From: Sphyrna mokarran
Taxonomy: Eukaryota
Direction of reading: 5' to 3'
Length of the DNA stretch: 64,000 nucleotides
Assembly (NCBI GenBank): GCA_024679065.1
Contig: JAGIQG010000009.1
Span: 95,604,001 to 95,668,000, forward strand
In this document: in pieces, positions 5,665 to 53,677 of the stretch
How positions within the stretch are numbered: position 1 is the stretch's first letter
How the letters are laid out: each line of letters begins with the position of its first letter
Notes under the pieces: model-generated
What the model was told of the DNA's origin: nothing
The model's database searches: none
The model's input: the letters and a program-made list of their open reading frames with translations, nothing else
Translations under genes and position numbers: made by a program

Positions 5665-5928
5665 CGTAAATCACCACCAGTGTCTCCTCCATCCCGCTGT
5701 GTTCCACCCGACAGGAATACTCGGCTTGGTCCTCTGGATCAAACTCAATCCATTTCCGGATCTGGTAGGTGCTGTCGTGATTGGGTAAGATCCCAGTGGA
5801 CAGAGTCTCACCAATCACCACTCCATCTCTGCACAGATTCACCTCGATGGCTTGAGGGTAAAACCCGGTGACGGCACAGGACAGCCGGTTAGAATCACCC
5901 AGACGGGTAAAGGACACGACGGGGGCAA
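5665..5928 (-). CDS. Gene A exon 4, class I alpha3 (Ig C1-set) domain
   Basis: VAPVVSF...LSCAVTGFYPQAIEV...ILPNHDSTYQ...YSCRVEHSGM; 264 nt with AG/GT ends. Confidence 0.95.
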
Positions 5929-7444
5929 CTGAGAGAGAAAGAAAGAGGAGTCAGTACAGAAACCTCGAGATAGAGAGTCCCGGCATCACCCCCTTCACCG
6001 ACTCTCGCTCCCCCCCCTCACTCACCGACTCTCACTCCCCCCCCTCACTCACTGACTCTCATTCCCCCCTCACTCATCGACTCTCACTCCCCCCTCGCTC
6101 ACCGCTCTCGCTCCCCCCCTCGCTCACCGACTCTCGCTCCCCCTCACCTCACCGACTCTCACTCACCCCCCTCACTCACTGACTCTCACTCCCCCCCTCA
6201 CTCATCGACTCTCACTCCCCCCTCATCCACCGACTCTCACTCCCCCCTCACTCACACGACTCTCACTTCCCCCCTCACTCACCCACTCTCACTCCCCCCC
6301 CACTCACCGACTCTCACTTCCCCCCTCACTCACCGACTCTCACTTCCCCCCCACTCACCGACTCTCAATCCCCTCCTCACTCACCGATTCTCAATTCTCC
6401 CTGTCCATACTCCACGTATTTTCTCAGCCACTCGATACACTCCACCTTCAGGTAATCTTTCAATCGCTGGTTGTCATCAGTCAGCCGGTCGCACATGTTT
6501 TTGGTGCTCTCCCCCCAGGGCACCTGGGTCTCCCACATCACGTGATTATGGTCGAAGCTGAGAAAATCATGTCCGTCCCACCCAAACTGGATGAATCCAC
6601 TTGAAGTCCCATCATCCCTCAGGTCACAGCCAATAATCAGCTGGTAGACATGGATCCCTGTAGATTAGAAAAACAAACAGCCAATCAGAGACAGTCCCAA
6701 TGGGTGATTCCCACCTGCACAGCCAATCAGAACCAGTCTCACTAGGCAATCTCATTCTAACAGCCAACCAACACCAACTACTCTGCCCCCTCTCCCACAC
6801 ACTCACACAGCCAATCAGAGCCAGCCTCAATCCCTCCACACATTCACAGCCAATCACATTTCCTGTCACATCTCCAATCGCAGCCAATCAGCCTCTGGCT
6901 CCCGGTTCCTGATCCACTCTGGGTTTCTCCTCATTCCCGCCTGGATCCCCGGGTGCTGGGAGAGTGAGCGCTCACCTCCTGTCTGGTTGGTGCGGGACAT
7001 GAAGAGCGGAATCTTCTTTTTAAAATCCACTTCCATCTCCTCTGCGAGGATCTTCTTCCTCTCCCAGGCTGCCGGACCCTCGCTCTCCACCATCCACTGC
7101 TCCCGGGGGATCAGCTCCTTCCGATCACTGTCGTACATAACAAACTGGACACCGTCCACATAACCGACACCCACAAACTCCGGGAGACCCGGGATCGGAG
7201 TCATTCCCGTGAAGAATTGCCGGAGAGAGTGAGAGGCTGAAATAGAGAGAGAGAGAGAATTGAGGATATACATCCTAAAAACACCAACACCCTCACACAC
7301 ACAGATCAGGGCATGAACCCCAAAACACTGATTCCAAACCGAGAGCAAAACCTCCACCCAGCCTGACATTGCCCCTCTCAAACCCCATCACTCACCTGCA
7401 GACACCTCTCCACACAGAAGGACCAGCACTATCAGTCCAATCAT
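5665..7444 (-). CDS. MHC class I heavy chain, gene A (non-classical-like); exons 1-4 present, TM/cytoplasmic exons not in window
   Basis: Manual splice join(7396-7444,6976-7236,6385-6657,5665-5928). All introns are GT-AG and phase 1, and the frame is open: leader + alpha1 + alpha2 (C101-C164) + alpha3 Ig-C1. Confidence 0.93.
5985..6395. repeat. ~24-26 bp minisatellite filling intron 3 (also 28945-29197 and 52335-52460)
   Basis: Unit ~CCCCCTCACTCACCGACTCTCACT. Confidence 0.9.
6385..6657 (-). CDS. Gene A exon 3, class I alpha2 domain (not in the ORF track)
   Basis: Hand translation GIHVYQLIIGCDLRDDGTSSGFIQFGWDGHDFLSFDHNHVMWETQVPWGESTKNMCDRLTDDNQRLKDYLKVECIEWLRKYVEYGQGELRI; 273 nt with AG/GT ends. 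Confidence 0.95.
6976..7236 (-). CDS. Gene A exon 2, class I alpha1 domain
   Basis: ASHSLRQFFTGMTPIPGLPEFVGVGYVDGVQFVMYDSD...MSRTNQTG; N86 sequon; 261 nt with AG/GT ends. Confidence 0.95.
7396..7444 (-). CDS. Gene A exon 1, signal peptide
   Basis: ATG at 7444; MIGLIVLVLLCGEVSA; donor G|GTGAGT; 49 nt. Confidence 0.9.
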
Positions 7445-7584
7445 TGCTACTTCCCTCATGGTGCGGAAACATTTAGAGGAAACTCTTTTTTGTAGAAAGG
7501 CCATTTTCTCAACTCACTCCTTCTCTCTTTTTTTCGATTTAGTTTCCCCGGCGTCTCCGTCTTTCCCCGTTTACACTGAGCCTC

Positions 7585-7715
7585 AATCTGATTGGTTCAG
7601 TCCGATTTTATGTCCAATCAGGATAAAGAGATTCAGTGAGTCATCGGTCTCCGGCAGAACAGAAACAAACAGGTTGAGAAACAGGCTCAGTGTTGAGAAC
7701 TGTCCAATCAGGCAA
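7585..7715 (-). promoter_or_regulatory. Gene A promoter, X/X2/Y-like module
   Basis: Minus strand GCCGGAGACCGA-TGACTCA, 15-nt spacer, CTGATTGG (7614-7655). Second, inverted CCAAT box at 7588-7595. Conserved upstream of all three leader exons. Confidence 0.75.
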
Positions 7716-7724
7716 ACTCAGTAA

Positions 7725-10695
7725 GAGTCTGGCAACACCTATTTTAAGTCCAACCGATTTATTTGATAGTAAATCTGCTAGCTTTCGGAGTTTGTGCCTT
7801 CGTCAGGCAAATGAGGTGTTCTGGTCTCCAAAAGCACCCATATCAGCACAGTTTACAGATTGCTGATTAGAATGCGACTCATCCACTGTATCCTGGACCA
7901 TAATGTCTTCTCCTCCAACAACCAGATCTTCATCCAGACACACAGAACAGCCATGGAGACCAAATTCATATCTCTATATGCTCACATTTTCATGCACAGT
8001 TTCAGACAAGACATCTTCATAGCACAGCACCTTCAACCAATGCTATACACTAAATACATGGATGACATTTCTTCCTTTGGACTCATGGTGAACAATCACT
8101 GAAACAACTATATGATGACATCAACAAGTTCCATCCCACAATTAGACTCACCATGGATTATTCTCTGGAATCGGTTGCATTCTTGGACACACACATCTCC
8201 ATTAAGGAAGGTCACCTCGGCACTTCACTGTACTGCAAGCCCATGGATAACCTCACGATGTTCCATTGCTCCAGCTTCCACCCTAAACATGTTAAAGAAG
8301 CCATCCCCGACAAACAAGCCCTGCGTATACACAGGATCTCTTCAGATGAGGAGGATCGCAACAAACACCTTCAGATGCTGAAAAGATGCCCTCATAAAAA
8401 CAGAGTATGGCACTCGACTCATTGATGTAAAGATGCCGGCGTTGGATTGGAGTGGTAAGAACTCAGTAAGAATTTAGCAACACCAATTATTAATCCAACC
8501 GATTTATTTGATAGTAAAAAAGCGAGCTTTCAACACTCCCGTGTCTTCATCAGGCAAGTGCAGTGTTCTGGTCTGCAATAGCACACATCAGCACAGACAG
8601 TCAGAGATTGCTGATTAGAATGCGAATCCTTACATCTAACCTGCTATTCAAGTGTTAAAGTGGCTAACAATGTGTGTGAAGGGAATCCTGAGCATTGGTT
8701 AGAGAATTGTGTATTTTCTCCAGACAGCACAGTAAGTGAGGTTTTTTGCTAACCCAGGCAAGTTACGGGGGTTACAGATAGTGTGTCATGAAGCCAAGAT
8801 CCCTGTTAAGACCGTCCTCATGTGTGCGGAGCTTGGCTATCAGTCTCTGTTCAGCGACTCTGCGCTGTCGTGTATCACGAAAGCCCCCTTGAAGAACATT
8901 TACCCGCAGGTCGGAGGCCGAATGCCCATGACTGCTGAAGTGTTCGCCCACAGGAAGGGAACTGTTTTGCCTGGTGATTGTTGAGCGATGCTCATTCATC
9001 CGCTGTCGTAGTGTTTGCATGGTCTCCCCAATATACCATGCTTCGGGACATCCTTTCTTGCAACGTATTAGGTAGACAACGTTGGCCGAGTTGCAAGAGT
9101 ATGTACCGTGCACCTGGTGAATGGTATCCTCACGTTTGATGATGTCGTCCATGTCTATGATCTGGCATGTCTTGCAGAGGTTGCTGTGGCAGGGTTGTGT
9201 GGTATTGTGGTCACTGTTCTCCTGAAGGTTGGGTAGTTTGCTGCGAACAATGATCTGTTTGAGGTTGTGCGGTTGTCTGAAAGCAAGAAGTGGGGGGGTG
9301 GGGATGGCCCTAGCGAGATGTTCATCGTCATCAATGATATGTTGAAGACTCCGGAGAAGATGTCGTAGCTTCTCCGCTCCGGGGAAGTACTGGACAACAA
9401 AGGGTACTCTGTCCACCGTGTCCCGTGTTCGTCTTCTGAGGAGATCAGTGCGGTTTATCGTTGTGGCACGTTGGAACTGTCGATCGATGAGTCGAGCGCC
9501 ATATCCTGTTCTCACGAGTGCATCCTTCAGTGTCTGGAGGTGTCTGTCACGATCCTCCTCATCTGAGCAAATTCTGTGTATACGGAGGGCTTGTCCATAG
9601 GGAATGGCTTCTTTAATGTGTCTAGGGTGGAAGCTGGAGAAGTGGAGCATTGTGAGGTTGTCTGTCGGTTTGCGGCTCATTGATCGACTCATTGATCAAC
9701 AATTCCGATGTGCCAACTTCCTCAGAAGACAACCATAGGACACGGTGGACAGAGTACCCTTTGTTGTCCAGTACTTTCGCAGAGTGGAGAAGCTATGATA
9801 TCTTCTCCAGAGTCTTCAATTCTCATTAATGAAAACAAATATCTCACCAAGGCCAACCCAACACCCCCATTTCTTTCCTTCAAACAATCTTACAACCTCA
9901 AACAGACCATTGTCAGCAGCAAACTACCCAGCCTTCAGGAGAACAGTGACCACGACACCACACAACCCTGCCACAGCAACCTCTGCAAGACGTGCCGGAT
10001 CATTGACACGAATGCCATCATCTCATGTGAGAACACCAGGTACACGGTAGATACTCTTGCAACTCGGCCAACATCGTTATCTGATTTGCTGCAGAAAAGG
10101 ACATCCCGAGGCATGGTGCAGTGGGGAGACCGTGCAGGCACTATGACAATGAATGAATGAACACTGCTTGATAATACCAGGCAGGAGTGTTCTCTTCTTG
10201 TTGGGAAATACTTCAGTGGTCATAGGCATTCAGCCTCTGACCCTCAGATAAGCATTCTCCAAGGCAGCCTTCACGACACATAATAGTGCAGAGTCATTGA
10301 GCAGAGATTGATAGCCAAATTTGCACATATGAGGATGGCCTTAACCAGCCTCTTGGGTTCATGTTACACTATCTGTAATCCCCACGATTTGCCTGGACTT
10401 GCAAAATCTCACTAACTGTCCTGGCTGGAGACAATACATATCTCTTTAACCTGTGCTTAATCTTCTCTCCACTCACATTGTCTGTACCTTTAAGACTTGA
10501 TTCACTTTTCAATCAATATTTTGTAAATTGAGTTTGTGTCTTTATATGCCCTATTTGTGAATAGAACTCCCACTCACCTGATGAAGGGGCAGCAAGCACT
10601 CCGAGAGTGGCTTGTGCTACCAAATAAACCTGTTGGACTTCAACCTGGGTTGCGAGACTTCTTACTGTGTTTACCCCAATCCCACGCCAACATCT
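7725..10695 (+). mobile_element. Older degenerate Penelope-like element hosting the 8427-9675 insertion
   Basis: RT fragments (YMDD, FLDTHISIKEG) at 7880-8426 continue at 9685-10695 through the EN region and pLTR. Confidence 0.8.
8427..9675 (-). mobile_element. Penelope-like element, 3' part with intact GIY-YIG endonuclease frame and pLTR end
   Basis: ORF 8772-9692: RT thumb, CxxxxCxxC linker, NVVYLIRC...WYIGET...R..EH...GLN. Flanked by repeated CTCATTGAT. Confidence 0.92.
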
Positions 10696-11585: not shown

Positions 11586-13234
11586 TAAAGACAATGTTGT
11601 CGGGGAGAATACTGCGATACCAGGTTGTAGACTGGGCAGGATTGAGGTTCATAAGGAGGAGGTGTTAGCGTATCTTGAGGGTATGAAAATTGATAAGTCC
11701 CCTGGGCCAGATGGGATTTTCCCTAGGATTCTCTGGGAGGCTAGAGAGGAGATTGCAGAGCCTTTGGCTTGGATCTTCATGTCGTCGTTGGCTACAGGTA
11801 TAGTGCCGGAAGACTGGAGGATGGCAAATGTTGTCCCTTTGTTTAAAAAGGGGAGTAGGGACCATCCTGGAAATTATAGACCGGTGAGCCTGACTTCTGT
11901 TGTGGGTAAAGTCTTGGAAAGAATTATAAGGGATAGGATTTATAAGCATCTAGAGAGAAATAAATTGATTAGGGATAGTCAGCACGGTTTTGTGAAAGGT
12001 AGGTCGTGCCTCACAAACCTTATTGAGTTTTTTGAGGAGGTGACCAAAGAGGTAGATAAGGGTAAGACAGTTGATGTAGTGTATATGGATTTTAGCAAAG
12101 CGTTTGATAAGGTTCCCCATGGTAGGCTACTGCAGAAAGTGCAGATGCATGGGATTGGAGGTGATTTAGCAGTTTGGATTAGGAATTGGCTAGCTGATAG
12201 AAGACAGAGGGTGGTGGTGGATGGGAAATATTCAACCTGGAGTGCAGTTACAAGTGGTGTACCTCAAGGATCTGTTTTAGGGCCACTGCTGTTTGTCATT
12301 TTTATAAATGACCTAGATGAGGGTGTAGAGGGTTGGATTAGTAAATTTGCTGACGATACCAAAGTGGGGGGAGTTGTAGACAGCGAGGATGGATGTTACA
12401 GTTTGCAAAGGGACGTAGATAGGTTGCAGAGCTGGGCCGTGAGGTGGCAAATGGAATTCAATACGGATAAGTGTGAGGTGATTCACTTTGGTAGGAATAA
12501 CAGGCATATGAAATATAGGGTTAATGGAAGAACCCTTAATAGTGTTGTCGAGCAGAGGGATCTTGGGGTACAAGTACATAGCTCTTTGAAAGTTGGCACT
12601 CGGGTTGATAAAGTTGTTAAGAAGGCGTACGGTGTGTTAGCTTTTATTGGTAGAGGGATTGAATTTAGGAGCCGTGAGGTTATGTTACAACTGTACAAAC
12701 TCTGGTGCGGCCGCACTTGGAGTATTGCGTACAGTTCTGGTCGCCGCATTATAAGAAAGATGTGGAAGCACTGGAAAGGGTGCAGAGGAGGTTTACCAGG
12801 ATGTTGCCTGGTATGGTGGGAAGGCCTTATGAGGAAAGGCTGAGGGACATGAGGTTATTTTCATTAGAGAGAAGAAGGTTACGCGGTGACCTAATTGAGG
12901 CGTATAAGGTGATCAAGGGATTGGATAGGGTGGATAGTGAGAGCCTTTTTCCTCGGATGGTGATGACCAACACGAGGGGACATAACTTTAAATCAAGAGG
13001 TGGTAGTTATAGGACGGATGTCAGAGGCAGGTTCTTTACACAGAGGGTGGTGAGGGCGTGGAATGCCTTGCCTGCAGCAGTTGTGGACTCGCCTACTTTG
13101 GGGACATTCAAATGTTTGGTGGATAGGCATGTGGATGATATTGGAGTAGTTTAGGTTAGAGGGTCCACTGGCCGGCGCAACATCGAGGGCCGAAGGGCCT
13201 GTACTGCGCTGTAATTTTCTATGTTCTATGTTCT
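11586..13234 (+). mobile_element. Young 5'-truncated CR1 LINE, ORF2 reverse transcriptase
   Basis: 393-aa ORF with KSPGPDG, NYRPVSLTS, DFSKAFD, GVPQGS and FADD; one frameshift at ~12700; (TTCTATG)n tail. Confidence 0.95.
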
Positions 13235-16118: not shown

Positions 16119-16431
16119 TTTACAACAGACGCGCGTCTTTCAAACAACAGACGCGCGTCTTTCAAACAACAGACGCGCGTCTTTCAAACAACAGACGCGC
16201 GTCTTTCAAACAACAGACGCGCGTCTTTCAAACAACAGACGCGCGTCTTTCAAACAACAGACGCGCGTCTTTCAAACACCAGACGCGCGTCTTTCAAACA
16301 ACAGACGCGCGTCTTTCAAACAACAGACGCGCGTCTTTCAAACAACAGACGCGCGTCTTTCAAACAACAGACGCGCGTCTTTCAAACAACAGACGCGCGT
16401 CTTTCAAACAACAGACGCGCGTCTTTCAAAC
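16119..16431. repeat. 22-bp near-perfect minisatellite, 14 copies
   Basis: Unit CAAACAACAGACGCGCGTCTTT. Confidence 0.97.
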
Positions 16432-17849
16432 AAACATCTACCTCTGGTTTAGCACTGAAAACAAGAATACTCGCATGGTTTTGCAGCTCAGCGATGCCTG
16501 CTGTGAATGAGTCCTTTGGACAAAATTGAAACTCTGGCGTCTCAGCTTTGTAACTTCCAGCAGAGTTTGAGGGAGAGATAAAACCACTGCTGTCATTTAT
16601 TTATAAACCAGGAAACTACTGACAGCAAAGTTTTCACCCCAGGAAGGCAAGAAAAACTGCTTCCAACATAGCAGAATTTCTAATAACAGGGAGAGAGGCC
16701 TGGAAATACTGCCTTTCAGTTTGAAGTCCAAACATCATCTAACTAAAAAGAGCTAACAGCCCAAACCAAAAGTGAAAAACTCTTGATCTACCAATTATTC
16801 TTCTCTTTAACATTAGAAAAGGGTTGTAAACTTGTAAAACTCCAGGACATTACAGTTGGCCCAGATTAAAAATAAACAAATTCCAATTTAAACAGCAATA
16901 AAAGGACACCTAAGCACACAAGTTGGCAACAGTGAAAAAAACCTACCTACAGAGATCATGATTTGAATAATACATTTCTTAATGAGACAGTAATGTCACA
17001 TGATTAAACAGGCATGCAACAGTGGTAATTATCATACGCATCACATGCATGTTGTAACCTTAATCAACAGTTGTGAGTGGATAAAGATAGCTTCTGTACC
17101 TTGATGGCAATGTTTGTTACTTCTAATTGTATCTGAAAGAAAAGTGCTTCTGCAATTCTGAATTTGGTACTTGGTACTCTGATTGGCTTTCTAGGATGCT
17201 TGCTTTATGGCTCGCATATCAAATGTAATGTAATTTGTTTTGGCTACATGAAGGAAAAAAAGTTGTAACAACTTGAAAAGGCTGATCATCATAAAGCGCC
17301 ATGACACACGACAGATCAGAATAGCTTAAACAGTGTAGCTCCAGATAGAGCAATGCCCAACAAACCATAACTTTTAAAATCAGTGCAGGGTAATGAATCG
17401 CCTGATGAAGGAACAGCTATAAAAGCTCATGATTCCAAATAAACCTCTTGTAACTTGATGTTGTGAGACTTCTTACTGCAGATTCTGTGCAGAATAAACA
17501 GGTCAGATCAGAAGTGCTTCAAAAGTGCAGCTCCAGATGGAGCAATTCCCGATAAATTATTGCCACAGTTCCGTTCACAGACAGTCACATATGTAGTGTT
17601 TAAATCAGTCCATTGCTATCATTTCAATGAAATCTTCCCAGATTCTCGGATCCATTCTGCCACTGATCTTGGGACTAGTATCCCTGGATTTTCAAACCGC
17701 GTGCTGAGGATGAGAAAGAAATACATCACTATAGAGTGAGGCAAACACAGGAGAGCTGGAACATCCCCAGTAAAACCCATCAGATCCATCCAACACCCAG
17801 CAGCAAAATCTATCACAGCCCTGACATCTAATACTGCAGAAACCTGGAA

Positions 17850-19705: not shown

Positions 19706-20638
19706 CTCAGGAATGCGACATTGATTCGAGATGTAGTGGACATGAGGAAGGTTTTCAAAGGGATTTCTTATTTGCAGAGGGATTTGGACCAACTAGAAAA
19801 ATGGGCTGAAAAATGTCAAATGGAATTTAATGCAGACAAATGTGAGGTTTTGTACTTTGGAAGACAAACCAAAGTAGAATGTACAGAGTAAATGGTAGGA
19901 CTCTGAAGAGTGCAGTTGAACAGAGGGATCTGGAAATGCAGGTACAGAATTCCTTAAAAGTAGCATCACAGGTGGATAGGGTTGTAAAGAGTGCTTTTGG
20001 TACATTGGCCTTTATAAATTGGAGTATTGAGTATAAATTTGGAGTGTTATACTAAGGTTGTATAAGGCATTGGTGAGGCCGAATTTAGAGTATTGTGTAC
20101 AGTTTTGGTCACCTAGTTACAGGAAGGATGAAAGAGTGTAGACAAGGTTCACAAGAGTATTGCTAGGACTTGAGAAGCTGAGCTACAGAGAGAGATTGAA
20201 TAGGTTAGCACTTTATTCCCTGGAGCGTAGAAGAATTAAGTGAGATTTGATAGAGATGTACATGATTTGATGGGTACAGGGAGAGTGAATGCAAGTAGGC
20301 CTTTTCCACTGAGGCTAGAGGGAAAAAAAAACAGAGGGCATGGGCTAAGGGTAAAAGGAGAGACGTTTAAAGGGAATATTAGAGAGGATTCTTCACGCAG
20401 AGTGTGGAATGAGCTGCCAGATAAAATTGTAAACGCGGGGTCACTTTTAACATTTAAGCAAAACTTGTACGGGTTCATGGATGAGAGAGCTGTGGAGGGA
20501 TATGATTCAAGCGCAGATCAGTGGGACTAGGCAAGAAATGTGTCGGCATAGACAAGAAGGGCCAAAAGGCCTGTTTCTGAGGTGTAATTTTCTATGGTTC
20601 TATGAAGGAACTGGATGAAGCATCCCCTTAATCAGAAG
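19706..20638 (-). pseudogene. Gene B cytoplasmic exon 7, interrupted
   Basis: Halves at 20602-20638 and 19706-19716 match 43002-43049. In-frame TAA after SD; CR1 between the halves. Confidence 0.8.
19717..20601 (+). mobile_element. CR1 3' fragment inserted in gene B exon 7
   Basis: CR1 C-terminal remnants and TTCTATGG tail; absent at the homologous site in gene C. Confidence 0.85.
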
Positions 20639-20845
20639 CTGTTAAAGGAAGAGGAGGCATTAAAAACTGTTCATTATCAGAGACAGAGACTGTGAATGTG
20701 ATAAAGGGAGAATGAGAGAGACAAAGAGAGACAGAGAGAGACACTGAAAAAGAAAGAGGTTCTCACACATATACTGACGGTGATACACACAAATAAACTC
20801 TCTCTCTTTCACACACACACACACAGTGTTTGATGATCAGCTTAT

Positions 20846-20878
20846 TCTCTGCAAAATTGTAGCCACTCTTCCCTCTCC
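20846..20878 (-). pseudogene. Gene B cytoplasmic exon 6 (splice-dead)
   Basis: GRGKSGYNFAE, homologous to 43245-43277. Acceptor AG>TG and donor GT>AT. Confidence 0.8.
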
Positions 20879-21283: not shown

Positions 21284-21376
21284 CTTTCTTGTTGTTGATG
21301 ACAACAGCCACAATGATGAGAGCGATGAGCACGAGGACCCCGACAGGAACAGCAACGTGGGAGTGACACTTTGGTT
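21284..21376 (-). pseudogene. Gene B transmembrane exon
   Basis: EPKCHSHVAVPVGVLVLIALIIVAVVINNKK; 93 nt, 12 nt shorter than in gene C. Confidence 0.88.
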
Positions 21377-28630: not shown

Positions 28631-28894
28631 CGTAAATCACCACCACTGTCTCCTTCATCCCGCTGTGTTCCACCCGACAGGAATACTCGGCCTGGTCCTC
28701 TGGATCAAACTCGATCCACTTCCGGATCTGGTAGGTGCTGTCGTGATTGGGTAAGATCCCAGTGGACAGAGTCTCACCAATCACCACTCCATCTCTGCAC
28801 AGATTCACCTCGATGGCTTGAGGGTAAAAGCCGGTGACGGCACAGGACAGTCGGTTAGAAACACCCAGACGGGTAAAGGACACCACGGGAGCAA
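28631..28894 (-). pseudogene. Gene B alpha3 exon
   Basis: Near-identical to gene A and C alpha3; 264 nt with AG/GT ends. Confidence 0.92.
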
Positions 28895-29188: not shown

Positions 29189-29461
29189 CGACTCTCAATT
29201 CTCTCAATCCGTACTCCAGGTATTTTCTCAGCCACTCGATACACTCCACCTCCAGGTAATGTTTCCATTGTTGATTATTGCCCGTCTGCCAGTCCCGTCT
29301 GTTTTTGATGATCTCCCCCCAGGGCACTGGAGTCACCCATACCATGTGATCCTTGTTGAAGCTGATCAAATCACGTCCGTCCCACCCGTACTGGTTGAAT
29401 CCCCTCGAAGTCCCATCATCCCACAGGTCACAGCCAGTCATCATCTGGTAGACATGGATCC
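29189..29461 (-). pseudogene. Gene B alpha2 exon
   Basis: GIHVYQMMTGCDLWDDG...HYLEVECIEWLRKYLEYGLRELRV; 273 nt, open. Confidence 0.92.
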
Positions 29462-29484
29462 CTGTGGAAGAGAAACACAAACAG

Positions 29485-30920
29485 GTATAGTGCCAGAAGA
29501 CTGGAGGATGGCAAATGTTGTCCCTTTGTTCAAAAAGGGGAGTAGGGACCATCCTGGAAATTATAGACCGGTGAGCCTGACTTCTGTTGTGGGCAAGTCT
29601 TGGAAAGAATTATAAGGGATAGGATTTATAAGCATCTAGAGAGAAATAAATTGATTAGGGATAGTCAGCACTGTTTTGTGAAGGGTAGGTCGTGCCTCAC
29701 AAACCTTATTGAGTTTTTTGAGGAGGTGACCAAAGAGGTAGATAAGGGTAAGGCAGTTGATGTTGTGTATATGGATTTTAGCAAAGCGTTTGATAAGGTT
29801 CCCCATGGTAGGCTACTACAGAAAGTGCAGATGCATGGGATTGAAGGTGATTTAGCAGTTTGGATTAGGAATTGGTTAGCTGATAGAAGACAGAGGGTGG
29901 TGGTTGATGGGAAATATTCAACCTGGAGTGCAGTTACAAGTGGTGTACCTCAAGGATCTGTTTTGGGGCCACTGCTGTTTGTCATTTTTATAAATGACCT
30001 AGATGAGGGTGTAGAGGGTTGGATTAGTAAATTTGCTGACGATACCAAAGTGGGGGGAGTTGTAGACAGCGAGGATGGATGTTACAGTTTGCAGAGGGAC
30101 ATAGATAGGTTGCAGAGCTGGGCCGTGAGGTGGCAAATGGAATTCAATACGGATAAGTGTGAGGTGATTCACTTTGGTAGGAATAACAGGCATATGAAAT
30201 ATAGGGCTAATGGAAGGACCCTTAATAGTGTTGTCGAGCAGAGGGATCTTGGGGTACAAGTACATAGCTCTTTGAAAGTTGGCACCCAGGTTGATAAAGT
30301 TGTTAAGAAGGCGTACGGTGTGTTAGCTTTTATTGGTAGAGGGATTGAATTTAGGAGCCGTGAGGTTATGTTACAACTGTACAAAACTCTGGTGCGGCCG
30401 CACTTGGAGTATTGCGTACAGTTCTGGTCGCCGCATTATAAGAAAGATGTGGACGCATTGGAAAGGGTGCAGAGGAGGTTTACCAGGATGTTGCCTGGTA
30501 TGGTGGGAAGGCCTTATGAGGAAAGGCTGAGGGACCTGAGGTTATTTTCATTAGAGAGAAGAAGGTTACGCGGTGACCTAATTGAGGCGTTTAAGATGAT
30601 CAAGGGATTGGATAGGGGGGATAGTGAGAGCCTTTTTCCTCGGATGGTGATGACCAACACGAGGGGACATAACTTTAAATTAAGAGGTGGTAGTTATAGG
30701 ACGGATGTCAGAGGCAGGTTCTTTACACAGAGGGTGATGAGAGCGTGGAATGCCCTGCCTGCAGCAGTTGTGGACTCGCCTACTTTGGGGACATTCAAAT
30801 GTTCGGTGGATAGGCATATGGATGATATTGGAATAGTTTAGGTTAGAGGGTCCACTGGCCGGCGCAACATCGAGGGCCGAAGGGCCTGTACTGCGCTGTA
30901 ATGTTCTATGTTCTATGTTC
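29485..30920 (+). mobile_element. Young 5'-truncated CR1 LINE in gene B intron 2
   Basis: 413-aa RT ORF at 29600-30841; (TTCTATG)n tail; target-site duplication CAAACAG (29478-29484 and 30920-30926). Confidence 0.95.
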
Positions 30921-31218
30921 AAACAGCCAATCAGAGACAGTCCCAATGCATGATCCCACTTGCAAAACCAATCAGAAATAGTCTCACTGTGTGATGTCAT
31001 CCTACAACAATCAACATCAACTCTGCCCCCGCAACCAAAAACCACTCACACAGCCAATCAGAGCCAGCCTCAATCCCTCCACACATTCACAGCCAATCAC
31101 ATTTCCTGTCACATCTCCAATCGCAGCCAATCAGCCTCTGGTTCCAGGTTCCTGATCCACTCTGGGTTTCTCCTCATTCCCGCCTGGATCCCCGGGTGCT
31201 GCGAGAGTGAGCGCTCAC

Positions 31219-31386
31219 CTCCTGTCTGGTTGCTGCGGGACATGAAGAGCGGAATATCAGCTTTAAAATGTATCTCCTGCTCCTGTGCGAGGAACTTCTT
31301 CCTCGCCCAGGCTGCCGGACCCTCGCTCTCCACCATCCACTGCTCCCGGGGGATGAGCTCCACCCGATCACTGTCGTACACAACAA
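31219..31386 (-). pseudogene. Gene B truncated alpha1 exon (3' portion only)
   Basis: VYDSDRVELIPREQWMVESEGPAAWARKKFLAQEQEIHFKADIPLFMSRSNQTG|gt; homology stops at ~31386 against an inverted CR1 fragment. Confidence 0.9.
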
Positions 31387-31989
31387 TCTCCCTACCAATA
31401 AAAGCTAAGACTCTGTATGCCTTCTTAACAACCTTATCGACTTGATTGCCAAATTCTTTCAGGTAGAATCATAGAATCTCTGCATTGCAGAAAGAGATCG
31501 TTCAGCCCATCGATTCTCCAACAGAGCATCTTATCCAATCCCTGTACCAATAACCCCAATATTTACATTGCTAATTCCCCAAACTAATACATCTTGGGAG
31601 GGACATTAAAGGGCAATTTAGCATGGCCAATCCTAACCTGTGGGAGGAATCTGGTTCTCCCAGCCAAAATCCACATGGACATGGGGAGAATTTGCAAAGT
31701 CCACAAGACACCCTTGGCTAGAGTTGAACCTTGTCCCTAGCACTGTGGGAGCAGCAATGTTAACCACTGTGCCAAAGTGCCCACCATTCAATATGCAATC
31801 AGAAAAGCTAATGATATCTCGATGTTGCAAAGGGATTGGAGAGCAGAATAAAGAATTCTTATCACAAGTGTAAAGATCATTACTAACACCACACCTGCAA
31901 TTCTGTGTAGATGTTTTCCAGGCAGATGCACAGAGGATGTTTCCTTCTCTGAATCTCAGAAGGATCAGGACTTTTTTAATGAGGAAAAA

Positions 31990-42200: not shown

Positions 42201-42244
42201 CTCACTCTCAATCCAAAGTATTCTATCCTTCAACATTCCACCCA

Positions 42245-43002: not shown

Positions 43003-43049
43003 TCAGGAACGCATGGAGGAGCTGGATGAGGCATCCCCACCATCAGAAG
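43003..43049 (-). CDS. Gene C exon 7, cytoplasmic Ser-rich end and stop
   Basis: TSDGGDASSSSMRS*; a donor-like G|GTATGA follows the stop, implying a separate 3'UTR exon that I could not locate. Confidence 0.8.
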
Positions 43050-46000
43050 CTGTTAAAAGAAGGAGAGGCATTAAAACCTTTTCATTTTCACACAGACAGA
43101 GAGACTGTGAATGTGATAAAGAGAGAATGTGGGAGACAGAGAGAGACAGAGAGACAAGAGAAAGAGGTTCTCACACACATACTGACAATGACACACATAC
43201 ACACACACACACACAATAAACACAGTGTTTGATGATCAGCTTACTATTTGTGGGATTGTAGTCCCTCTTCCCTTTCCCTGTAAAACAAGAAATGTTCAGT
43301 CAGTGACGCGACTAAGAGAAAATCATAGGCAGAGGCTGGAACTCTTACTCGTACTGAGACCCTACAACAGAATTCTGAACCTGCACACCACAACCTAAAA
43401 CTCTCACTCCCACCCTCACCTTGGAGCCTTACTCTGATCTGAGACCCTCACAGATACCCTAAACTCCATCTGCAATCTGAGACCCTTACCACAATTCACA
43501 GACATTCCTCCTTTATCGTGAGCCCCTTATCCTCCCTATCCCAACACTGGGGATCTTCCACCCACTCTGTGCCCCCGCCACCCCAACCTGAGACCCACAT
43601 CCTGAGCCACCCCCACTCTGGAATACTCTCCCAGAATCCCTCCCTCCAGTGAGGAGCTGCTATTTTCCCTCCAATTCCTACCTTTCTTGTTGTAGATGAC
43701 AACAGCCACAATGATGAGAGTGATGAGCACGAGGACCCCGAGCACAATCCCGACAGTAACAGCAACGTGGGAGCGAGACTTTGGTTCTGTTAGAGAGAGA
43801 GAGTCGGAGAAACTGAATGAATTAGGGAGAGGGAAAAGTGAGAAAGAGAGAATGAGAGCGAGAGCGAGAGAGAACGAGAGCGAGAGAGAACGAGAATGAG
43901 AGTGAGAGCGAGAGAGAATGAGAGCGAGAGAGAATGAGAGCGAGAGCGAGAGAGAGAGAGAATGGGAGAGAGAGAGAATGGGAGAGAGAGAGGATGAGAN
44001 NNNNNNNNNNNNNNNNNNNNNNNNNNNNNNNNNNNNNNNNNNNNNNNNNNNNNNNNNNNNNNNNNNNNNNNNNNNNNNNNNNNNNNNNNNNNNNNNNNNN
44101 NNNNNNNNNNNNNNNNNNNNNNNNNNNNNNNNNNNNNNNNNNNNNNNNNNNNNNNNNNNNNNNNNNNNNNNNNNNNNNNNNNNNNNNNNNNNNNNNNNNN
44201 NNNNNNNNNNNNNNNNNNNNNNNNNNNNNNNNNGAAAGAGAGAGAATGAGAATGAGAGAGAGAGAATGAGAATGAGAGAGAGAGAATGAATGAGAGAGAG
44301 GGAGAGAGAGAATGAGAGAGGATGAGAAAATGGAGAGGAGATGAGAGAGAGAGAGAGAATGAGAGAGAGAGATGAGAGGAGAGGGAAATGAGAATGAGAA
44401 TGAGAGAGAGGGAGAATGAGAATGAGAGAGAGGGAGAATGAGAATGAGAATGAGAGAGAGGGAGAATGAGAATGAGAGAGAGAATGAGAGAGGGAGAATG
44501 AGAATGAGAGCGAGAATGAGAATGAGAGCGAGAGAGAATGAGAATGAGAGCGAGAGAGATAAATGAGAGCGAGAGAAGAGAGAAGAATGAGATAGAGAGA
44601 GAGAAGAGAGAGAGATAGAAAATGAGAGAAGAGAGAATGAGAATGAGAGTGAGAATGAGAATGGAGAGAAGGAGAATGAGAGAGAGAGAATGAGAATAGA
44701 GAGAGAGAGAGAATGAGGAGAGAGGAAGAAATGAGAGGAGAAGAATGGAATGAGAGAGAGAGAATGAGAATGAAGAGAGAGAAATGAGAATGAGAATGAG
44801 AGAGAATGAGAATGAGAGAGAGAGATGAGAGAGAGAGAATGAGAGAGAGAGAGAATGAGAGAGAGAGGGAGAATGAGAATGAGAATGAGAGAGAGGGAGA
44901 ATGAGAATGAGAGAGAGGGAGAATGAGAATGAGAATGAGAGAGAGGGAGAATGAGAATGAGAGAGAGAATGAGAGAGGGAGAATGAGAATGAGAGCGAGA
45001 ATGAGAATGAGAGCGAGAGAGAATGAGAATGAGAGAATGAGAGCGAGAGAGAATGAGAATGAGAGCGAGAGAATGAGAGAGAATGAGAATTAGAGAGAGA
45101 GAATGAGAGAGAGGATGAGAAAATGAGACAGAGAGAATGAGAATGAGAGTGAGAATGAGAATGAGAGAGAAGGAGAATGAGAGAGAGAGAATGAGAATGA
45201 GAGAGAGAGAGAGAAAGAGAAAGAGAGAGAATGAGAATGAGAGAGAGAGAGAATGAGAAAATGAGAGAGAGAGAATGAGAATGAGAGAGAATGAGAATCA
45301 GAGAGAGGGAGAATGAGAGAGAGAGAGAGAGAGAATGAGAAAATGAGACAGAGAGAGAGAGGGCTAGCAGCTTAGAGTGAATAAGTGAGTGAACGACAGA
45401 GAGAGAGAGAAAGTTCAGAGAGAGAGAATGAGAGAGTGAATCAGAGGGAAAGAAAGAAATGTTACAGTGAGAATGAGAGAGGAAGAAAGAGAAATGACAG
45501 AGTGAATCAGAGTAAGAGAGAATCAGGAAATATAGGATATACGTCACAGAAACTGGCCATTCAGCCCATCCAGTTGATGCTGGTTTTTATGTTCCACCTA
45601 AGACTCCTCCAATCTTTCCTCATCTAATTTGACCATTTTAACTCTATTCCCTTCTCCTTCATTTGCTTGTCTATCTTCCCCTTAAACTATACTGTTCAGT
45701 TCAGCCACTCCCTGTGGCAGCGAGCTCCACATTCTCATCACTCTTTGGGTGAAGAGGTTTCTCATGAATTCCCCATTGGGTTTCTTGTATTGATGGCCAC
45801 TGGATATGCTCTTCTCACAGGAGGAACACTCTCGATGTGTCCGCTCTATAAAAAAAGACCTTTCCTAATTTTAAAGTCCTCGATTAGATCAACCCTCATC
45901 CTTCCATTTTCTCGAGAGCAGAGACCCAGCCAGTCAATCCTTTCCTGAGATGCTCACCCACTCATTTCTGGAATCATCTCTGTAAATCTTCTTCACACTC

Positions 46001-49000
46001 TGTCCTCTGACTCTATATCCTTTGTATGAAATGATGACTAGAACAACACAGTCTTTAAATGTGGTCTAACCAAGGTTTGGCAATAACATCCCTGCTTTAC
46101 AATTCTATTCCTCAAGAAGTAAAACCTGGTTTTCGATTGTATTTTGTTTATTGCATAACCTGTAACTGTATGTTTACTGATTGGTGTATTTGTACACCAA
46201 GATCCTTTGTTTCTCAACCCTTCCTATTCATCATTAACTGAAAAATATCTCACATTTATCTGTGCTGAACTTTATTCACCAACTATTTGCTGGAGTTTAT
46301 TCATGTCATGTTAATTTATTCCAGTTCTCCTCAAAATCAAATAATTCCCCCAAATTTGATGTTATCTGCAAATTAAGAAATAGTGTTTTTGATTCCAATG
46401 TCCAAGTTATGGAGTGTAAGTTGTGAATAATAGTGATCCCAACACTGATCCTTGTGGAATGATGGAGGAGCCCAGCACATCAGTGCAGAAGATAAAGTCG
46501 AAATATTCAGAGCAATCTTCAGCCTGAAGTGCCGAGCGGATGATCCACCTCAGCCTCCTCCAGTGGTCCCTAGCGTCTCAGATATCAGTCTCCAGATAAT
46601 TCGATTCACTTCACGTGATATCAAGGACCAGATGGAAGCACTGGATACTGCAAAGGCAATGGGCCCTGATAACATTCCACCAATAGTATTGAAGATTTGT
46701 GCACCAGGACTTGCTGTTCCCCAAGCCAAACTCTTCCAGTACAGTTACAACACTGGCATCTACCCTACAATGTGGAAAATTGCCCAGGTATGGCCTGGAC
46801 ACAAAAAGCAGGATAAACCCAACCCAGCCAATTCCCGCCCAATCAGTCTACTATTGATCACGGGTAAAGTGATGGATGGGGTCATCGACAGTGTTATCAT
46901 GCAGCATCTGCTCAGCAACACTCAGACTGGGTTTCCCCGGGTCACGCAGCTCCTGATCTCATTACAACCTCGGTTCAAACGTGGGCAAAAGAGCTGCATT
47001 CCAGAGGTGAGGTGAGAGTGACAGCCCCTGAAATCAAGACCACATTTGACCGAGTGTGACATCAAGGAGCCTTAGCAAAACTGGAATCAGGAGGGGCAAA
47101 CTCTCCATTGGTTGGAGTCAGACCTGGTACATAGGAAGATGGTTGTGGTTGTGGAGGGTCAGTCACCTCAGCTCGATGACATCTCTACAGGAGTTCCTCA
47201 GGGTAGTGTCCGAGGCCCAAAAATCTTCAGCTCTTCACCAATAACCTTCCTTCCATCATAAGATCGGAAGTGGGAACGTTCACCGATGATCGCACAACAT
47301 TCAGCACCATTCGCGACTCCTCAGATACTGAAGCAGTCCATGTTCAAATGTAACAAGGTCTGGTCAATATCCAGGCTTGGGCTGACAAGGGACAAATAAT
47401 ATTCACGCCACACAAATGTCAGGCAATGACTAATCACCAACTTGAGACACTCTAACCACTGCACATTAACATTCAGTAATGTAACCATCACTGAATTCCC
47501 CTCTGCCAACATCCTTGGGAATTACCATTGTTCATTAACTCAACTGGACTCACTGTATTGGATTAGGAATTGGCTAGCTGATAGAAGACAGAGGGTGGTG
47601 GTTGATGGAAATTATTCATCATGGAGTTCGGTTACAAGTGGTGTACCTCAGGGATCTGTTTTGGGGCCCCTGCTGTTTGTAATTTTTATAAATGATCTGG
47701 ATGAGGGTATTGAAGGATGGATTAGTAAATTTGCAGATGACACCAAAGTCGGTGGAGTGGTAGATAGTGAAGAGGGGTGTTATAGTTTGCAGAGAGACTT
47801 GGACAAGTTGCAGAGCTGGGCCGAGAGGTGGCAAATGGAGTTTAATGCGGAAAAGTGTGAGGTAATTCACTTTGGCAGGAATAACAAATGTGTAGAGTAT
47901 AGGGCTAATGGTAGGATTCTTAATAGTGTTGATGAACAGAGGGATCTTGGTGTATATGTGCATAGATCCCTGAAAGTTGGCAATCAAGTCGATAAGGTTG
48001 TTAAGAAGGCATACGGAGTCTTAGCTTTTATTGGTAGGGGGATTGAATTTCGGAGCCGCAACGTCATGTTGCAACTGTACAAAACTCTAGTGCGGCCGCA
48101 CTTGGAGTATTGTGTACAGTTCTGGTCCCCACATTATAAGAAAGATGTGGAGGCATTGGAGAGGGTACAGAGGAGGTTTACCAGGATGTTGCCTGGTATG
48201 GAGGGCAGGTCTTATGAAGAGAGGCTGAGGGATTTGAGGTTGTTTTCGTTAGAAAGAAGGCAGCTAGAGGAGACCTTATTGAAACATATAAGAGGTTTAG
48301 ATAGGGTGGACAGTGATAACCTTTTTCCAAGGATGGAGAAAGCTAGCACGAGGGGACATAGCTTTAAATTAAGGAGTGGTAGTTATAGGACGGATGTCAG
48401 AGGTAGGTTCTTTACCCAGAGGGTGGTAAGGGTATGGAATGCCCTGCCTGCTGCAGTTGTAGATGCGCCAAGTTTGGGGGCGTTTAAGAGGTTAGTAGAT
48501 AAGTTTATGGATGAAAAGGGAATGGTTTAGGTTAGAGGGTCATTGCTTTTTCTTAATTGGTCAGCACAACATCGAGGGCTGAAGGGCCTGTTCTGCGCTG
48601 TAATGTTCTATGTTCTATGTATGAACAAAGTGACTGCAAATTAAGTCAGAGGCTAGGAATACTGTGGCAAGTAACTCACCTTCTGATTCCCCAAAGCTTA
48701 TTCACCATCTACAAGGCATAAGTCAGGAGTGTGATGGAATATTCTCCAGTTGCCTGGATGGGTGCTCCGCCAACAGCACACAAGACGCTTCACACCATCC
48801 ACGATAAAGCAGCCCACCTGACTGGCATCACATTTACAAATATTTAATCAGCCTACCATTGATGGTCAGCAGCAGCAGTGTGTACTATGTACAAGGTGCA
48901 CTCCTGCAATTCACTGAAGATCCTTGGAAAGCACTTTAAAACTACACGATCACTTCCATCTAAAAGGACAAGGGCAGCAGAAAAATGGGAAAACCACCAC

Positions 49001-52000: not shown

Positions 52001-53571
52001 AAACAATCTTACCGTAAATCACCACCAGTGTCTCCTTCATCCCGCTGTGTTCCACCCGACAGGAATACTCGGCCTGGTCATGTGGATCAAACTCAATCCA
52101 TTTCCGGATCTGGTAGGTGCTGTCGTGATTGGGTAAGATCCCAGTGGACAGAGTCTCATCAATCACCACTCCATCTCTGCACAGATTCACCTCGATGGCT
52201 TGAGGGTAAAACCCGGTGACGGCACAGGACAGCCGGTTAGAATCACCCAGACGGGTGAAGGACACGACAGGGGCAACTGAGAGAGAAAGAAAGAGGAGTC
52301 AGTACAGAAACCTCGAAACAGAGTGTCCCGGCATCACCCCCTTCACCGACTCTCGCTCCCCCCCCCCCCACTCACCGACTCTCGCTCCCCTCCCCCCACT
52401 CACCGACTCTCGCTCCCCCTCCCCCCACTCACCGACTCTCGCTCCCCCTCCCCCATTCACCAATTCTTAATTTTCCCTGTCCATACTCCAGGTATTTTCT
52501 CAGCCACTCGATACACTCCACGTCCAGGTAATGTTTCCATCGCTGGTTGTCATGAGTCTGCTGGTCCCAGTTGTTTTTGATGCTCTCCCCCCAGGGCACC
52601 GGGGTCACCCACACCATGTGATTCTTGTCAAAGCTCAGAACATCATGACCGTTCCAACCATGTTGGCTGAATCCACTCGTGGTCCCATCATCCCCCAGCT
52701 CACATCCAATCATCAGTTGGCAGATAAGGATCCCTGTGGTTCAGAAACACAAACAGCCAATTAGGGATACTCCTAATGGTTGTTTCCACCTGCATAGCCA
52801 ATCAGAATCATTCTCACTGAGCAATCGCATCCAACCAGCCAATCAACATCAACTATAATTGCCAACCCACACACAGCCAATCAGAGCCAGCCTCAATCCC
52901 TCCACACATTCACAGCCAATCACATTTCGTGTCACATCTCCAATCGCAGCCAATCAGCCTCTGGCTCCCGGTTCCTGATCCACTCTGGGTTTCTCCTCAT
53001 TCCCGCCTGGATCCCCGGGTGTTGGGAGAGTGAGCGCTCACCTCCCGTCTGGTTGCTCCGGGACATGAAGAATGGAATCCGATGTTTGAAATGCATCTCC
53101 TGCTCCCGCGCGAGGATATTCTTCCTCGCCCAGGCTGCCGGACCCTCGCTCTCCACCATCCACTGCTCCCGGGGGATCAGCTCCCCCCGATCACTGTCGT
53201 ACATAACAAATTGGACACCGTCCACATAACCGACAACTATAAACTCCGGGAAACCCGGGATCGGAGTCATTCCCGTGAGGAAATACCGGAGAGAGTGAGA
53301 GCCTGAAATAGAGAGAGACAGAATTCAGGATATACACCCGAAAAACACCAACACCCTCACACACACAGATCAGGGCATGAACCCCAAAACACTGATTCCA
53401 AACTGAGAGTAAGACCTCCACCCAGCCTGGCATTGCCCCTCTCAAACCCCATCACTCACTGACCCAGGGTTAATTCCCCAGTACCCAGCCTGGCATTGTC
53501 CCTCTCACACATCATCACTCACCTGTAGATACCTCTCCACACAGAAGGACCAGCACTATCAGTCCAATCAT
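43003..53571 (-). CDS. MHC class I heavy chain, gene C (complete, non-classical-like, 343 aa)
   Basis: join(53523-53571,53042-53302,52461-52733,52013-52276,43682-43786,43245-43277,43003-43049) = 1032 nt. All introns GT-AG, frame open to TGA: leader/alpha1/alpha2/alpha3/TM/cytoplasmic tail. Confidence 0.93.
43245..43277 (-). CDS. Gene C exon 6, cytoplasmic (Tyr-containing)
   Basis: 33-nt exon GKGKRDYNPTN; ttttacAG acceptor and GTaag donor. Confidence 0.82.
43682..43786 (-). CDS. Gene C exon 5, connecting peptide and TM
   Basis: EPKSRSHVAVTVGIVLGVLVLITLIIVAVVIYNKK; hydrophobic stretch followed by basic residues; AG/GT ends. Confidence 0.9.
43792..45365. repeat. (GA/GAAT)n polypurine microsatellite containing an assembly gap (N 44000-44233)
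   Basis: Seen directly in sequence. Confidence 0.95.
46455..49200 (+). mobile_element. Degenerate CR1-clade LINE, paralogue of 770-2390, interrupted by a younger CR1
   Basis: Host sequence resumes at ~48620 after the nested insertion. Confidence 0.85.
47559..48617 (+). mobile_element. Young 5'-truncated CR1 LINE (nested)
   Basis: RT motifs GVPQGSVLGP and KFADD; (TTCTATG)n tail; TGTAT at both junctions. Confidence 0.92.
50435..51320. mobile_element. Penelope-like inverted fragments
   Basis: ORF 50770-50982 matches the GIY-YIG C-terminus (GEHF...GLNRDLGFMSHYL). Confidence 0.78.
52013..52276 (-). CDS. Gene C exon 4, alpha3
   Basis: Ig C1 motifs C...FYP and YxCxVxH; 264 nt. Confidence 0.95.
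52461..52733 (-). CDS. Gene C exon 3, alpha2
   Basis: GILICQLMIGCELGDDG...HYLDVECIEWLRKYLEYGQGKLRI; 273 nt; donor GTGAAT. Confidence 0.95.
53042..53302 (-). CDS. Gene C exon 2, alpha1
   Basis: GSHSLRYFLTGMTPIPGFPEFIVVGYVDG...WARKNILAREQEMHFKHRIPFFMSRSNQTG; 261 nt. Confidence 0.95.
53523..53571 (-). CDS. Gene C exon 1, signal peptide
   Basis: MIGLIVLVLLCGEVST; donor G|GTGAGT. Confidence 0.9.
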
Positions 53572-53677
53572 CGCTGATTCCCTCGTGTTGGGGAAGCATT
53601 TGGAGGAAACTCTTTTTCGAAGAAAGACCATTTTCTCAACTCACTTCTTTTGACTTTCCCGGTTCACACTGAACCTC

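Follow-up and report, generated by a model that had tools for sequence, protein, structure and literature searches.

The 64-kb stretch of Sphyrna mokarran DNA analysed here (the window) carries several class I gene copies, raising the questions of which elasmobranch lineage they belong to and what their altered groove might bind. The initial annotation was right to describe an expanded family of non-classical shark class I genes.

Gene copies in the window

The window contains one complete gene (gene C), one probable gene (gene A), one pseudogene (gene B), and one fragment, an orphan leader exon. Gene C comprises seven exons encoding 343 aa with no internal stops, and no alpha exons lie between it and the orphan leader:

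57390..57438, minus strand: orphan leader exon (its promoter reaches ~57677)
53523..53571, minus strand: gene C leader exon (exon boundaries)
53042..53302, minus strand: gene C alpha1 exon with Y7, A59, K63, and P79 (Pfam MHC_I; homolog search)
52461..52733, minus strand: gene C alpha2 exon with C95, I143, N146, and W147 (exon boundaries; Pfam)
52013..52276, minus strand: gene C alpha3 exon (Pfam C1-set)
43682..43786, minus strand: gene C connecting peptide and transmembrane (TM) exon (exon boundaries)
43245..43277, minus strand: gene C cytoplasmic exon 1, tyrosine-containing
43003..43049, minus strand: gene C cytoplasmic exon 2, serine-rich, with the stop codon

The leader through alpha3 exons of gene A are intact, and alignment of the upstream regions revealed a promoter block common to gene A, gene C, and the orphan leader. 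No TM or tail exons of gene A were found within the 64-kb window; given the local synteny with gene C, the TM exon is placed to the left of base 1.

7445..7716, minus strand: gene A proximal promoter block (three upstream regions aligned)
7396..7444, minus strand: gene A leader exon (ATG to GT donor; tblastn match to homolog signal peptides)
6976..7236, minus strand: gene A alpha1 exon with Q7, A59, K63, and P79 (AG/GT boundaries)
6385..6657, minus strand: gene A alpha2 exon with T143, M146, and C147 (exon boundaries; Pfam MHC_I)
5665..5928, minus strand: gene A alpha3 exon (exon boundaries; homolog identity)

Gene B has no leader exon, and ~33 codons are missing from the start of its alpha1 exon, where a CR1-type fragment abuts the truncation. 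A 1.45-kb CR1-type LINE, 97% identical to a second copy in the window (11794-13248), sits ~20 nt ahead of the alpha2 acceptor. The first cytoplasmic exon lacks both splice sites, and the last carries a premature stop. Because of the missing leader, truncated alpha1, CR1 insertion, lost splice sites, and premature stop, gene B was classed as a pseudogene. The three paralogues described initially are thus present as copies, but not as three functional genes, and only gene C is complete in the window.

31219..31389, minus strand: gene B alpha1 exon, 5'-truncated (CR1-type fragment immediately upstream)
29481..30935, plus strand: CR1-type LINE in gene B intron 2 (junctions; RVT_1, E 1.9e-29)
29189..29461, minus strand: gene B alpha2 exon with I143, R146, and R147 (exon boundaries)
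28631..28894, minus strand: gene B alpha3 exon (exon boundaries)
21284..21376, minus strand: gene B TM exon, 12 nt shorter than that of gene C
20600..20878, minus strand: gene B cytoplasmic exon remnants (outer limits approximate)

No other host genes were noticed in the 64-kb window, either among the long ORFs listed or by Pfam analysis of two ORFs.

Placement in the UBA lineage

The UBA family of shark immune genes, first recognised in 1997, is expected to show low polymorphism and a non-classical expression pattern. The phylogenetic evidence makes it almost certain that the window genes belong to this elasmobranch lineage. In a tree from which nine trait columns had been removed, the window copies and Gici-UBA formed part of a 21-row clade (support 100/99), within which the window copies grouped with Mustelus copies (support 98/92). 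Separate alpha1, alpha2, and alpha3 trees placed them within the UBA group each time, and placement outside UBA was rejected by the AU test (p=3.2e-8). The horn shark sequence O19480 fell in the UBA clade with Gici-UBA (AAC60347/O19479), and the window genes lay outside the group formed by Gici-UAA and the class I alleles of Triakis. The homolog P0023 was taken as Gici-UBA after matching it by eye to Gcirratum_UBA_AAC60347 in the supplement of PMC10751288. The alpha3 domains of the window genes are 80-83% identical to Gici-UBA, compared with 55-57% for Gici-UAA (71/86 vs 49/88 positions for gene A); that of gene C matches Gici-UBA at 70/86 positions and Mustelus P0003 at 82/88.

That the genes represent an undescribed class I lineage apart from UBA is extremely improbable: although UCA, UDA, UFA, and UGA were compared by eye only, the nesting in UBA, the AU rejection, and the closer alpha3 match to Gici-UBA oppose it, and a new lineage was ruled out on the nesting and the AU test. 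In that comparison with the supplement alignment of PMC10751288, made outside any tree, no affinity to UCA, UDA, UFA, or UGA was apparent, and the rows of these lineages there lacked the K63 motif and had longer alpha3 strands. Membership in UEA would be excluded indirectly, through nesting in UBA.

The nearest relatives in the tree are the Mustelus asterias copies P0003, P0004, P0008, and P0010/P0013, a tree position that points to a carcharhiniform shark near Mustelus. The exact EGPAAW-x-RK motif is found in four Mustelus rows, and alpha3 identity to P0003 is 91-93%, but alpha1/alpha2 identity is only 71-81%, and one-to-one orthology was not seen. With Gici-UBA the window genes share the absence of Y59 and K146 together with K63, L45, L66, P79, I143, W156, E163, and W167; they differ in being 54-72% identical in alpha1/alpha2, in having A59 instead of F59 and an extra Cys in alpha3, and, for gene A, in Q7 and T143/M146/C147. 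The resemblance to the classical Gici-UAA (6LUP) extends to the fold (as judged from a homolog model), exon layout, short alpha3, R84, N86, Y159, and Y171, but identity is 46-62%; this nurse-shark class I structure was the top PDB match of the gene A alpha1 domain (E 5e-25).

The available text of PMC12562908 describes UBA as UAA-derived and expanded, and that of PMC10751288 as a multicopy tandem cluster in the MHC, with c4 and rxrb as its flanking genes. The window packs three UBA-type copies plus an orphan leader into its 64 kb and fits a tandem cluster of UBA genes alone, as judged from the long ORFs listed and the two ORFs run through Pfam. Whereas the initial annotation had left the lineage unassigned for want of a tree, the copies lie inside UBA in each per-domain tree, and the remodelled groove is the UBA signature. 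Because the copies nest in UBA and share its groove substitutions, the claim of novelty fails on the annotation's own terms. They are new copies of a lineage already described, and what is new is the species-specific members, not the family.

The groove across UBA and between paralogues

HLA-A2 numbering was set on nurse-shark UAA through the supplement alignment of PMC10751288 and then transferred to the window genes. The residues first read by eye all held under this numbering: A59 and K63 in genes A, B, and C; P79, L/L/F at position 80, and F81; Q7 in gene A and Y7 in gene C; T/M/C (A), I/R/R (B), and I/N/W (C) at 143/146/147; and the retained R84, N86, Y159, and Y171. Scoring of eight classical anchors (Y7, Y59, R84, T143, K146, W147, Y159, and Y171) revealed that the loss of terminal anchors is real, with 4/8 kept in gene A, 5/8 in gene C, and 3/7 scorable in gene B; the mean in 50 UAA-type proteins was 7.44 of 8.

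These substitutions recur throughout the lineage. Among 39 other UBA proteins, Y59 was present in none, K63 in 37, P79 in 29, and I143 in 35, and T143 was absent from 38. The window genes combine K63 with loss of anchors 59, 143, and 146 as in Gici-UBA, except that gene A keeps T143. With the window copies included, L45 occurred in 40/42 rows, K63 in 40/42, L66 in 37/42, E163 in 37/42, W156 in 30/42, and W167 in 42/42. By comparison, UAA-type rows had Y59 in 48/53, T143 in 52/53, K146 in 48/53, and K63 in 1/53. An acidic residue at 163 was found in 39/40 rows with K63 and in 16/53 without it, counts that come from related sequences and are not independent. Horn, carpet, mackerel, and ground sharks all retain K63, L45, L66, and E163 in UBA, and the stingray UBA in the PMC10751288 supplement has, by eye, L45, K63, L66, I143, W156, and D163. 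In galeomorphs, mean entropy at the N-terminal end of the groove was 0.79 for UBA (41 rows) and 1.30 for UAA-type (24 rows), compared with 2.12 and 1.34, respectively, at the C-terminal end, a post hoc contrast in that the position sets were picked after the signature counts. At the level of sequence, UBA fixes the N-terminal end of the groove and its C-terminal anchors vary. Our literature search, which ran without the main UBA/UDA/UEA papers, returned no paper on UBA groove residues or ligands.

Genes A and C differ at 16/37 groove positions compared with 28/140 others (Fisher p=0.005), and within the groove at 10/12 C-end and 2/14 N-end positions of the same post hoc sets; their alpha3 domains are 97% identical. 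Groove-codon dN/dS was inconsistent across pairs (1.59, 1.18, and 0.57): the A vs C value of 1.59 is based on 4.5 synonymous changes, and B vs C gave the lowest value, 0.57. Given the few synonymous changes and the low B vs C value, positive selection is not established, and relaxed constraint could give the same divergence pattern. Q7 was found in 0/32 other UBA rows having a residue at that position, and gene A, which carries it, may be decaying.

Candidate ligands of UBA

Taken as a whole, the best explanation is that of a UBA cluster whose ligands are peptide-type and non-canonically anchored, and we give it roughly an even chance of holding. UBA is a UAA-derived, multicopy, non-classical lineage turning over through duplication and decay, with intact copies such as gene C predicted to encode class I molecules that sit at the cell surface with beta2m. 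The N-terminal end would be fixed lineage-wide by the lack of Y59, by K63 facing E163 over the mouth of the A pocket (a putative bridge, judging by residue positions), by hydrophobic L45/L66/W156, and by a small residue 99, so as to hold a shared hydrophobic N-proximal moiety in place of a free amino terminus. A precedent is Mamu-B*098, in which, according to the available text of PMC4735555, a bulky residue 63 and a bridge from a basic residue to E163 close the A pocket. Having lost T143/K146, the C-terminal end would vary between paralogues, and each paralogue may cover a different set of peptide-type ligands whose ends are blocked, modified, or overhanging. Peptide-type ligands held without the classical terminal anchors appear likeliest; CD1-like lipids fit less well with a partly polar groove that largely retains Y7, Y159, W167, and Y171. 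Modified or non-peptide ligands, as put forward in the initial annotation, are candidates. As Y7, Y159, and Y171 mostly persist, a free N-terminus may still be bound. All structure models are of homologs, not of the spliced window proteins; that of P0003, a close homolog, was predicted by AlphaFold and adopts the usual class I fold (TM 0.94 to 6LUP). Its alpha1 helix is continuous where that of the control is broken, an observation too weak to serve as evidence.

A possible but rather doubtful reading is that UBA presents N-acylated lipopeptides or small molecules in its hydrophobic N-terminal end, with K63 binding an anionic group or forming a Schiff base, as does MR1 K43. K63 is near-invariant and lies in an aromatic cradle of Y7, F22, W156, Y159, W167, and Y171. 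Mean hydropathy of the inner groove is 0.46 in UBA (n=31) and -0.01 in UAA-type proteins (n=50), but nurse-shark UAA itself reaches 0.60; a CD1-like hydrophobic groove was rejected, the shift being modest and overlapping UAA values. MR1 likewise lacks Y59 and K146, has I99, I143, E163, and W167 at aligned positions, and carries a conserved groove lysine, but at 45 rather than 63. K43, R9, S24, and R94, which we take to be the MR1 ligand cradle, align to L45, L/F9, V/G24, and L/M97 in the window genes. RMSD to MR1 chains was ~1.5-2.3 A for the UBA model and ~1.8-2.9 A for the control, but this gap may stem from alpha3 orientation without beta2m. A control with all eight anchors matched MR1 equally by sequence and Foldseek E-value, and MR1 chains filled the Foldseek lists of both models alike, so an MR1-like fold was discarded as support. 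UBA is also multigenic and diverse, unlike monomorphic MR1 or CD1. The N-myristoyl lipopeptide presenter Mamu-B*098, an unrelated primate classical allele, offers a second comparison: besides the bulky residue 63 and the basic residue facing E163, it shares with UBA a small residue 99 and a hydrophobic B-pocket wall (PMC4735555). Its requirements according to that text, however, include small residues at positions 9 and 70 (S9/A70) as well as an intact F pocket (T143, K146, Y84), and UBA lacks these; the window genes have I/T at 99 (small), F/L at 9, M/Q at 70, and L/M at 97, with no K146, and thus do not reproduce the Mamu-B*098-type small 9, 70, 97, and 99 with the F-pocket network.

That UBA presents ordinary 8-10mer peptides under a restricted motif, its groove reflecting relaxed constraint and a few founder changes, is quite unlikely. 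Y7, R84, Y159, W167, Y171, and usually W147 persist, the homolog model folds normally, and pseudogenes and fragments indicate rapid turnover, but the absence of Y59 and T143, together with retention of K63, L45, L66, and E163 across shark groups and a similar stingray UBA, argues for new constraint, not drift. It also seems quite unlikely that UBA molecules, their groove partly closed, work ligand-free to signal stress or self to NK-type receptors. Bulky residues at 63, 66, 74, 81, and 156 could fill the groove, and NK receptor pairing is common in multicopy, diversifying class Ib families; the concentration of paralogue differences in the groove, floor residues 95, 114, 116, and 123 among them, suggests ligand contact instead.

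For annotation the value of the locus is ordinary, as it adds copies to a known multicopy lineage. For UBA binding, the fixed N-terminal end (K63/E163/L45/L66/W156) and variable C-terminal end provide a precise hypothesis in a group, elasmobranch class Ib, whose functions the available text of PMC10751288 states to be unknown. A more specific proposal, which we regard as unlikely, is that UBA is a shark-and-ray system presenting N-acylated or blocked peptides or small reactive metabolites through K63-E163 and the hydrophobic N-terminal end, with paralogues diversified at the C-terminal end. If true, UBA would parallel Mamu-B*098 or MR1 as an independent, multigenic system predating the shark-ray split, and surveillance of modified peptides or metabolites would have arisen independently in the oldest jawed vertebrates.

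Assignment to the UBA lineage

The alpha1 domain of gene C retrieved 39 proteins at E <= 1e-15, the named ones all from sharks, with copies from Mustelus asterias, horn shark O19480 and nurse shark O19479 as top matches. O19479 (P0023) was matched by eye, in all three domains, to the entry Gcirratum_UBA_AAC60347 in the available part of the PMC10751288 supplement, and served as nurse shark UBA (Gici-UBA). UBA is described in the available parts of PMC10751288 and PMC12562908 as a multicopy class Ib family derived from the classical UAA, with its own MHC cluster between c4 and rxrb, and the former states the functions of elasmobranch class Ib as unknown. A further search, started from a UAA-type protein, returned 1091 proteins, the best 120 of which were considered. 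Both lists together supplied the comparison set of 92 chondrichthyan proteins, all named, with 3 outgroups. Multi-gene fusions (four) and fragments (three) were set aside, as were two unnamed matches and the remaining non-chondrichthyan rows.

FastTree analysis of 98 rows placed the window genes with Gici-UBA, and Gici-UAA outside, for alpha1, alpha2 and alpha3 singly and combined; the UBA clade held 42 rows (support 0.994). IQ-TREE analysis of 47 of these rows, with nine trait columns dropped, grouped the window genes with Mustelus copies (98/92) and recovered a 21-row clade holding the window genes and Gici-UBA (100/99). Placement of the window genes outside UBA was rejected, at a cost of 65 log-likelihood units (p-AU 3.2e-8). 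The alpha3 domains of the window copies were 80–83% identical to Gici-UBA, compared with 55–57% to Gici-UAA; UCA, UDA, UFA and UGA were compared with the window genes by eye. On this phylogenetic evidence, the window genes are new members of the already known UBA lineage. The initial annotation had presented them as an expanded non-classical family with a remodelled groove and left them unassigned among the described elasmobranch lineages; the feature is real and was correctly read, and any novelty falls away, as the genes nest in UBA and their substitutions are common to it.

Gene copies and surrounding sequence

Three class I copies were found in the window, all on the minus strand. Gene C is complete (seven exons, 343 residues, zero internal stops). 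In gene A, the leader through alpha3 exons are intact with canonical splice sites, and no transmembrane (TM) exon was found within the window; the resemblance of bases 381–663 to 45458–45740 suggests that this exon lies to the left of base 1. Gene B is a pseudogene, because it lacks the leader exon, its alpha1 is truncated 5' and adjoins a CR1-type fragment, a CR1 LINE lies about 20 nt upstream of the alpha2 acceptor, the TM exon is shortened, the first tail exon has no splice sites and the last carries a premature stop. Together with an orphan leader, these copies represent a tandem family in duplication and decay. Features annotated around them were as follows:

7445–7716, 53572–53812 and 57439–57677, minus strand: conserved promoter block (upstream alignment)
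57390–57677, minus strand: orphan leader with promoter (within-window comparison and upstream alignment)
8775–9695, minus strand: 307-amino-acid ORF with a GIY-YIG domain (domain match)

The promoter block contains TGACTCA followed about 18 nt on by ATTGG, which we take to resemble the X2-Y part of the MHC SXY module; an AGTTTC lies at -40. In the orphan leader copy the ATTGG carries a mutation. The GIY-YIG ORF is probably a Penelope-like retroelement, and related fragments recur through the window. The CR1-type LINE copies at 29481–30935 (in gene B, with an apparent short target-site duplication) and 11794–13248 appear recent, because they are 97% identical; a further related copy lies at 47558–48620. 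A 2-kb block, in which a 39-bp minisatellite adjoins degenerate leader-like sequence, is duplicated at 32435–34415 and 59778–62067 (91–95% identity), and these blocks are possibly remnants of more gene copies. An almost perfect 22-bp tandem repeat (14 copies) occupies 16122–16433. Intron 4 of gene C is interrupted, within a GA-rich repeat, by an assembly gap (44000–44233, 234 N).

Groove signature and divergence between copies

HLA-A2 numbering was transferred onto nurse shark UAA via the alignment in the available PMC10751288 supplement, and the window genes were aligned to UAA. All residues listed in the initial annotation proved correct on this numbering: A59, K63, P79 and L/F80-F81 in the window copies; Q7 in gene A and Y7 in gene C; T/M/C, I/R/R and I/N/W at 143/146/147 in A, B and C, respectively; and retention of R84, N86, Y159 and Y171.

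The alignment indicates that the remodelled groove is a signature of the UBA lineage. Each row compared stands for a cluster at 90% identity, some rows are probably isoforms, and the rows are not independent. Among 39 non-window UBA rows, position 59 was never Y (A 22, S 11, F 5, L 1), K63 occurred in 37, P79 in 29, I143 in 35, K146 in 6, W147 in 25, R84 in 30, Y159 in 28 and Y171 in 33. The 53 other chondrichthyan rows among the matches listed had Y59 in 48, T143 in 52, K146 in 48 and K63 in one. Outside the window, the exact motif EGPAAW-x-RK occurred in four Mustelus rows and EG-x-x-AW-x-RK in 19 rows. L45, K63, L66, W156 and E163 are near-fixed in UBA and variable in UAA-type molecules, whereas the normally invariant 143/146/147 vary in UBA; among the window copies and the matches listed, acidic 163 accompanied K63 in 39/40 cases compared with 16/53 without K63. 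Mean entropy in galeomorph sharks, UBA versus UAA-type, was 0.79 versus 1.30 at the N-terminal end of the groove and 2.12 versus 1.34 at the C-terminal end, for position sets picked post hoc and with similar overall divergence (0.66 versus 0.61 identity). Heptranchias P0028 carries K63 and a UBA-like alpha1, yet retains Y59, T143 and K146 and groups overall with UAA-type proteins; it is possibly recombinant or intermediate.

Between A and C, 16/37 groove positions of alpha1/alpha2 differed compared with 28/140 others (p=0.005), the 16 including 10/12 C-end and 2/14 N-end positions, in sets picked after the data were seen; alpha3 was 97% identical. Analysis of dN/dS in the window copies did not establish positive selection. 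Intron 3 of each copy (5995–6393, 28953–29197, 52343–52461), between the diverse alpha2 and homogenised alpha3, holds a 25–29-bp C-rich minisatellite of differing copy number. In the F-pocket area, C95 and C147 occur together in three Mustelus rows (P0008, P0010, P0013), and singly in the alpha2 of gene C (C95; 52461–52733) and gene A (C147; 6385–6657). This distribution might stem from a disulfide within the pocket of certain paralogues and from mosaic exchange among copies. All three alpha3 exons (5665–5928, 28631–28894, 52013–52276) encode an extra unpaired Cys, a possible dimerisation site; this position is Trp in P0003, P0004 and P0006, and Cys in Scyliorhinus P0007.

Candidate ligands

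The predicted model of P0003, a close Mustelus asterias homolog, had a normal class I fold (pLDDT 80.7; TM 0.94 to the nurse shark structure 6LUP), and MR1 chains came next in its structural match list. Likeness to MR1 was dropped as support, since the control P0046, with all eight anchors kept, matches MR1 likewise by structure and by sequence; the lower RMSD of the UBA model to MR1 may be an effect of domain orientation and was also excluded.

K63 and E163 would face each other across the mouth of the A pocket. According to the available part of PMC4735555, the A pocket of Mamu-B*098 is shut by a bulky residue 63 and a basic–E163 bridge, and N-myristoyl peptides are bound. The analogy is partial, as UBA has neither the small residues that this allele carries at positions 9 and 70 nor its intact F pocket. 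Y7, Y159, W167 and Y171 are kept in the UBA groove, as are many polar residues, and the hydrophobicity of the groove is only modestly above that in UAA-type proteins. Because of these features and the partial analogy, peptide-type ligands anchored non-canonically rank first, with about an even chance of being correct. Binding of acylated peptides or small molecules ranks second and is rather unlikely. Binding of ordinary peptides, to which the kept tyrosines would be suited and the replaced Y59 would not, ranks third and is doubtful; receptor binding by a ligand-free molecule is the least probable of the four readings. What this leaves for UBA is a sharper, testable ligand hypothesis.
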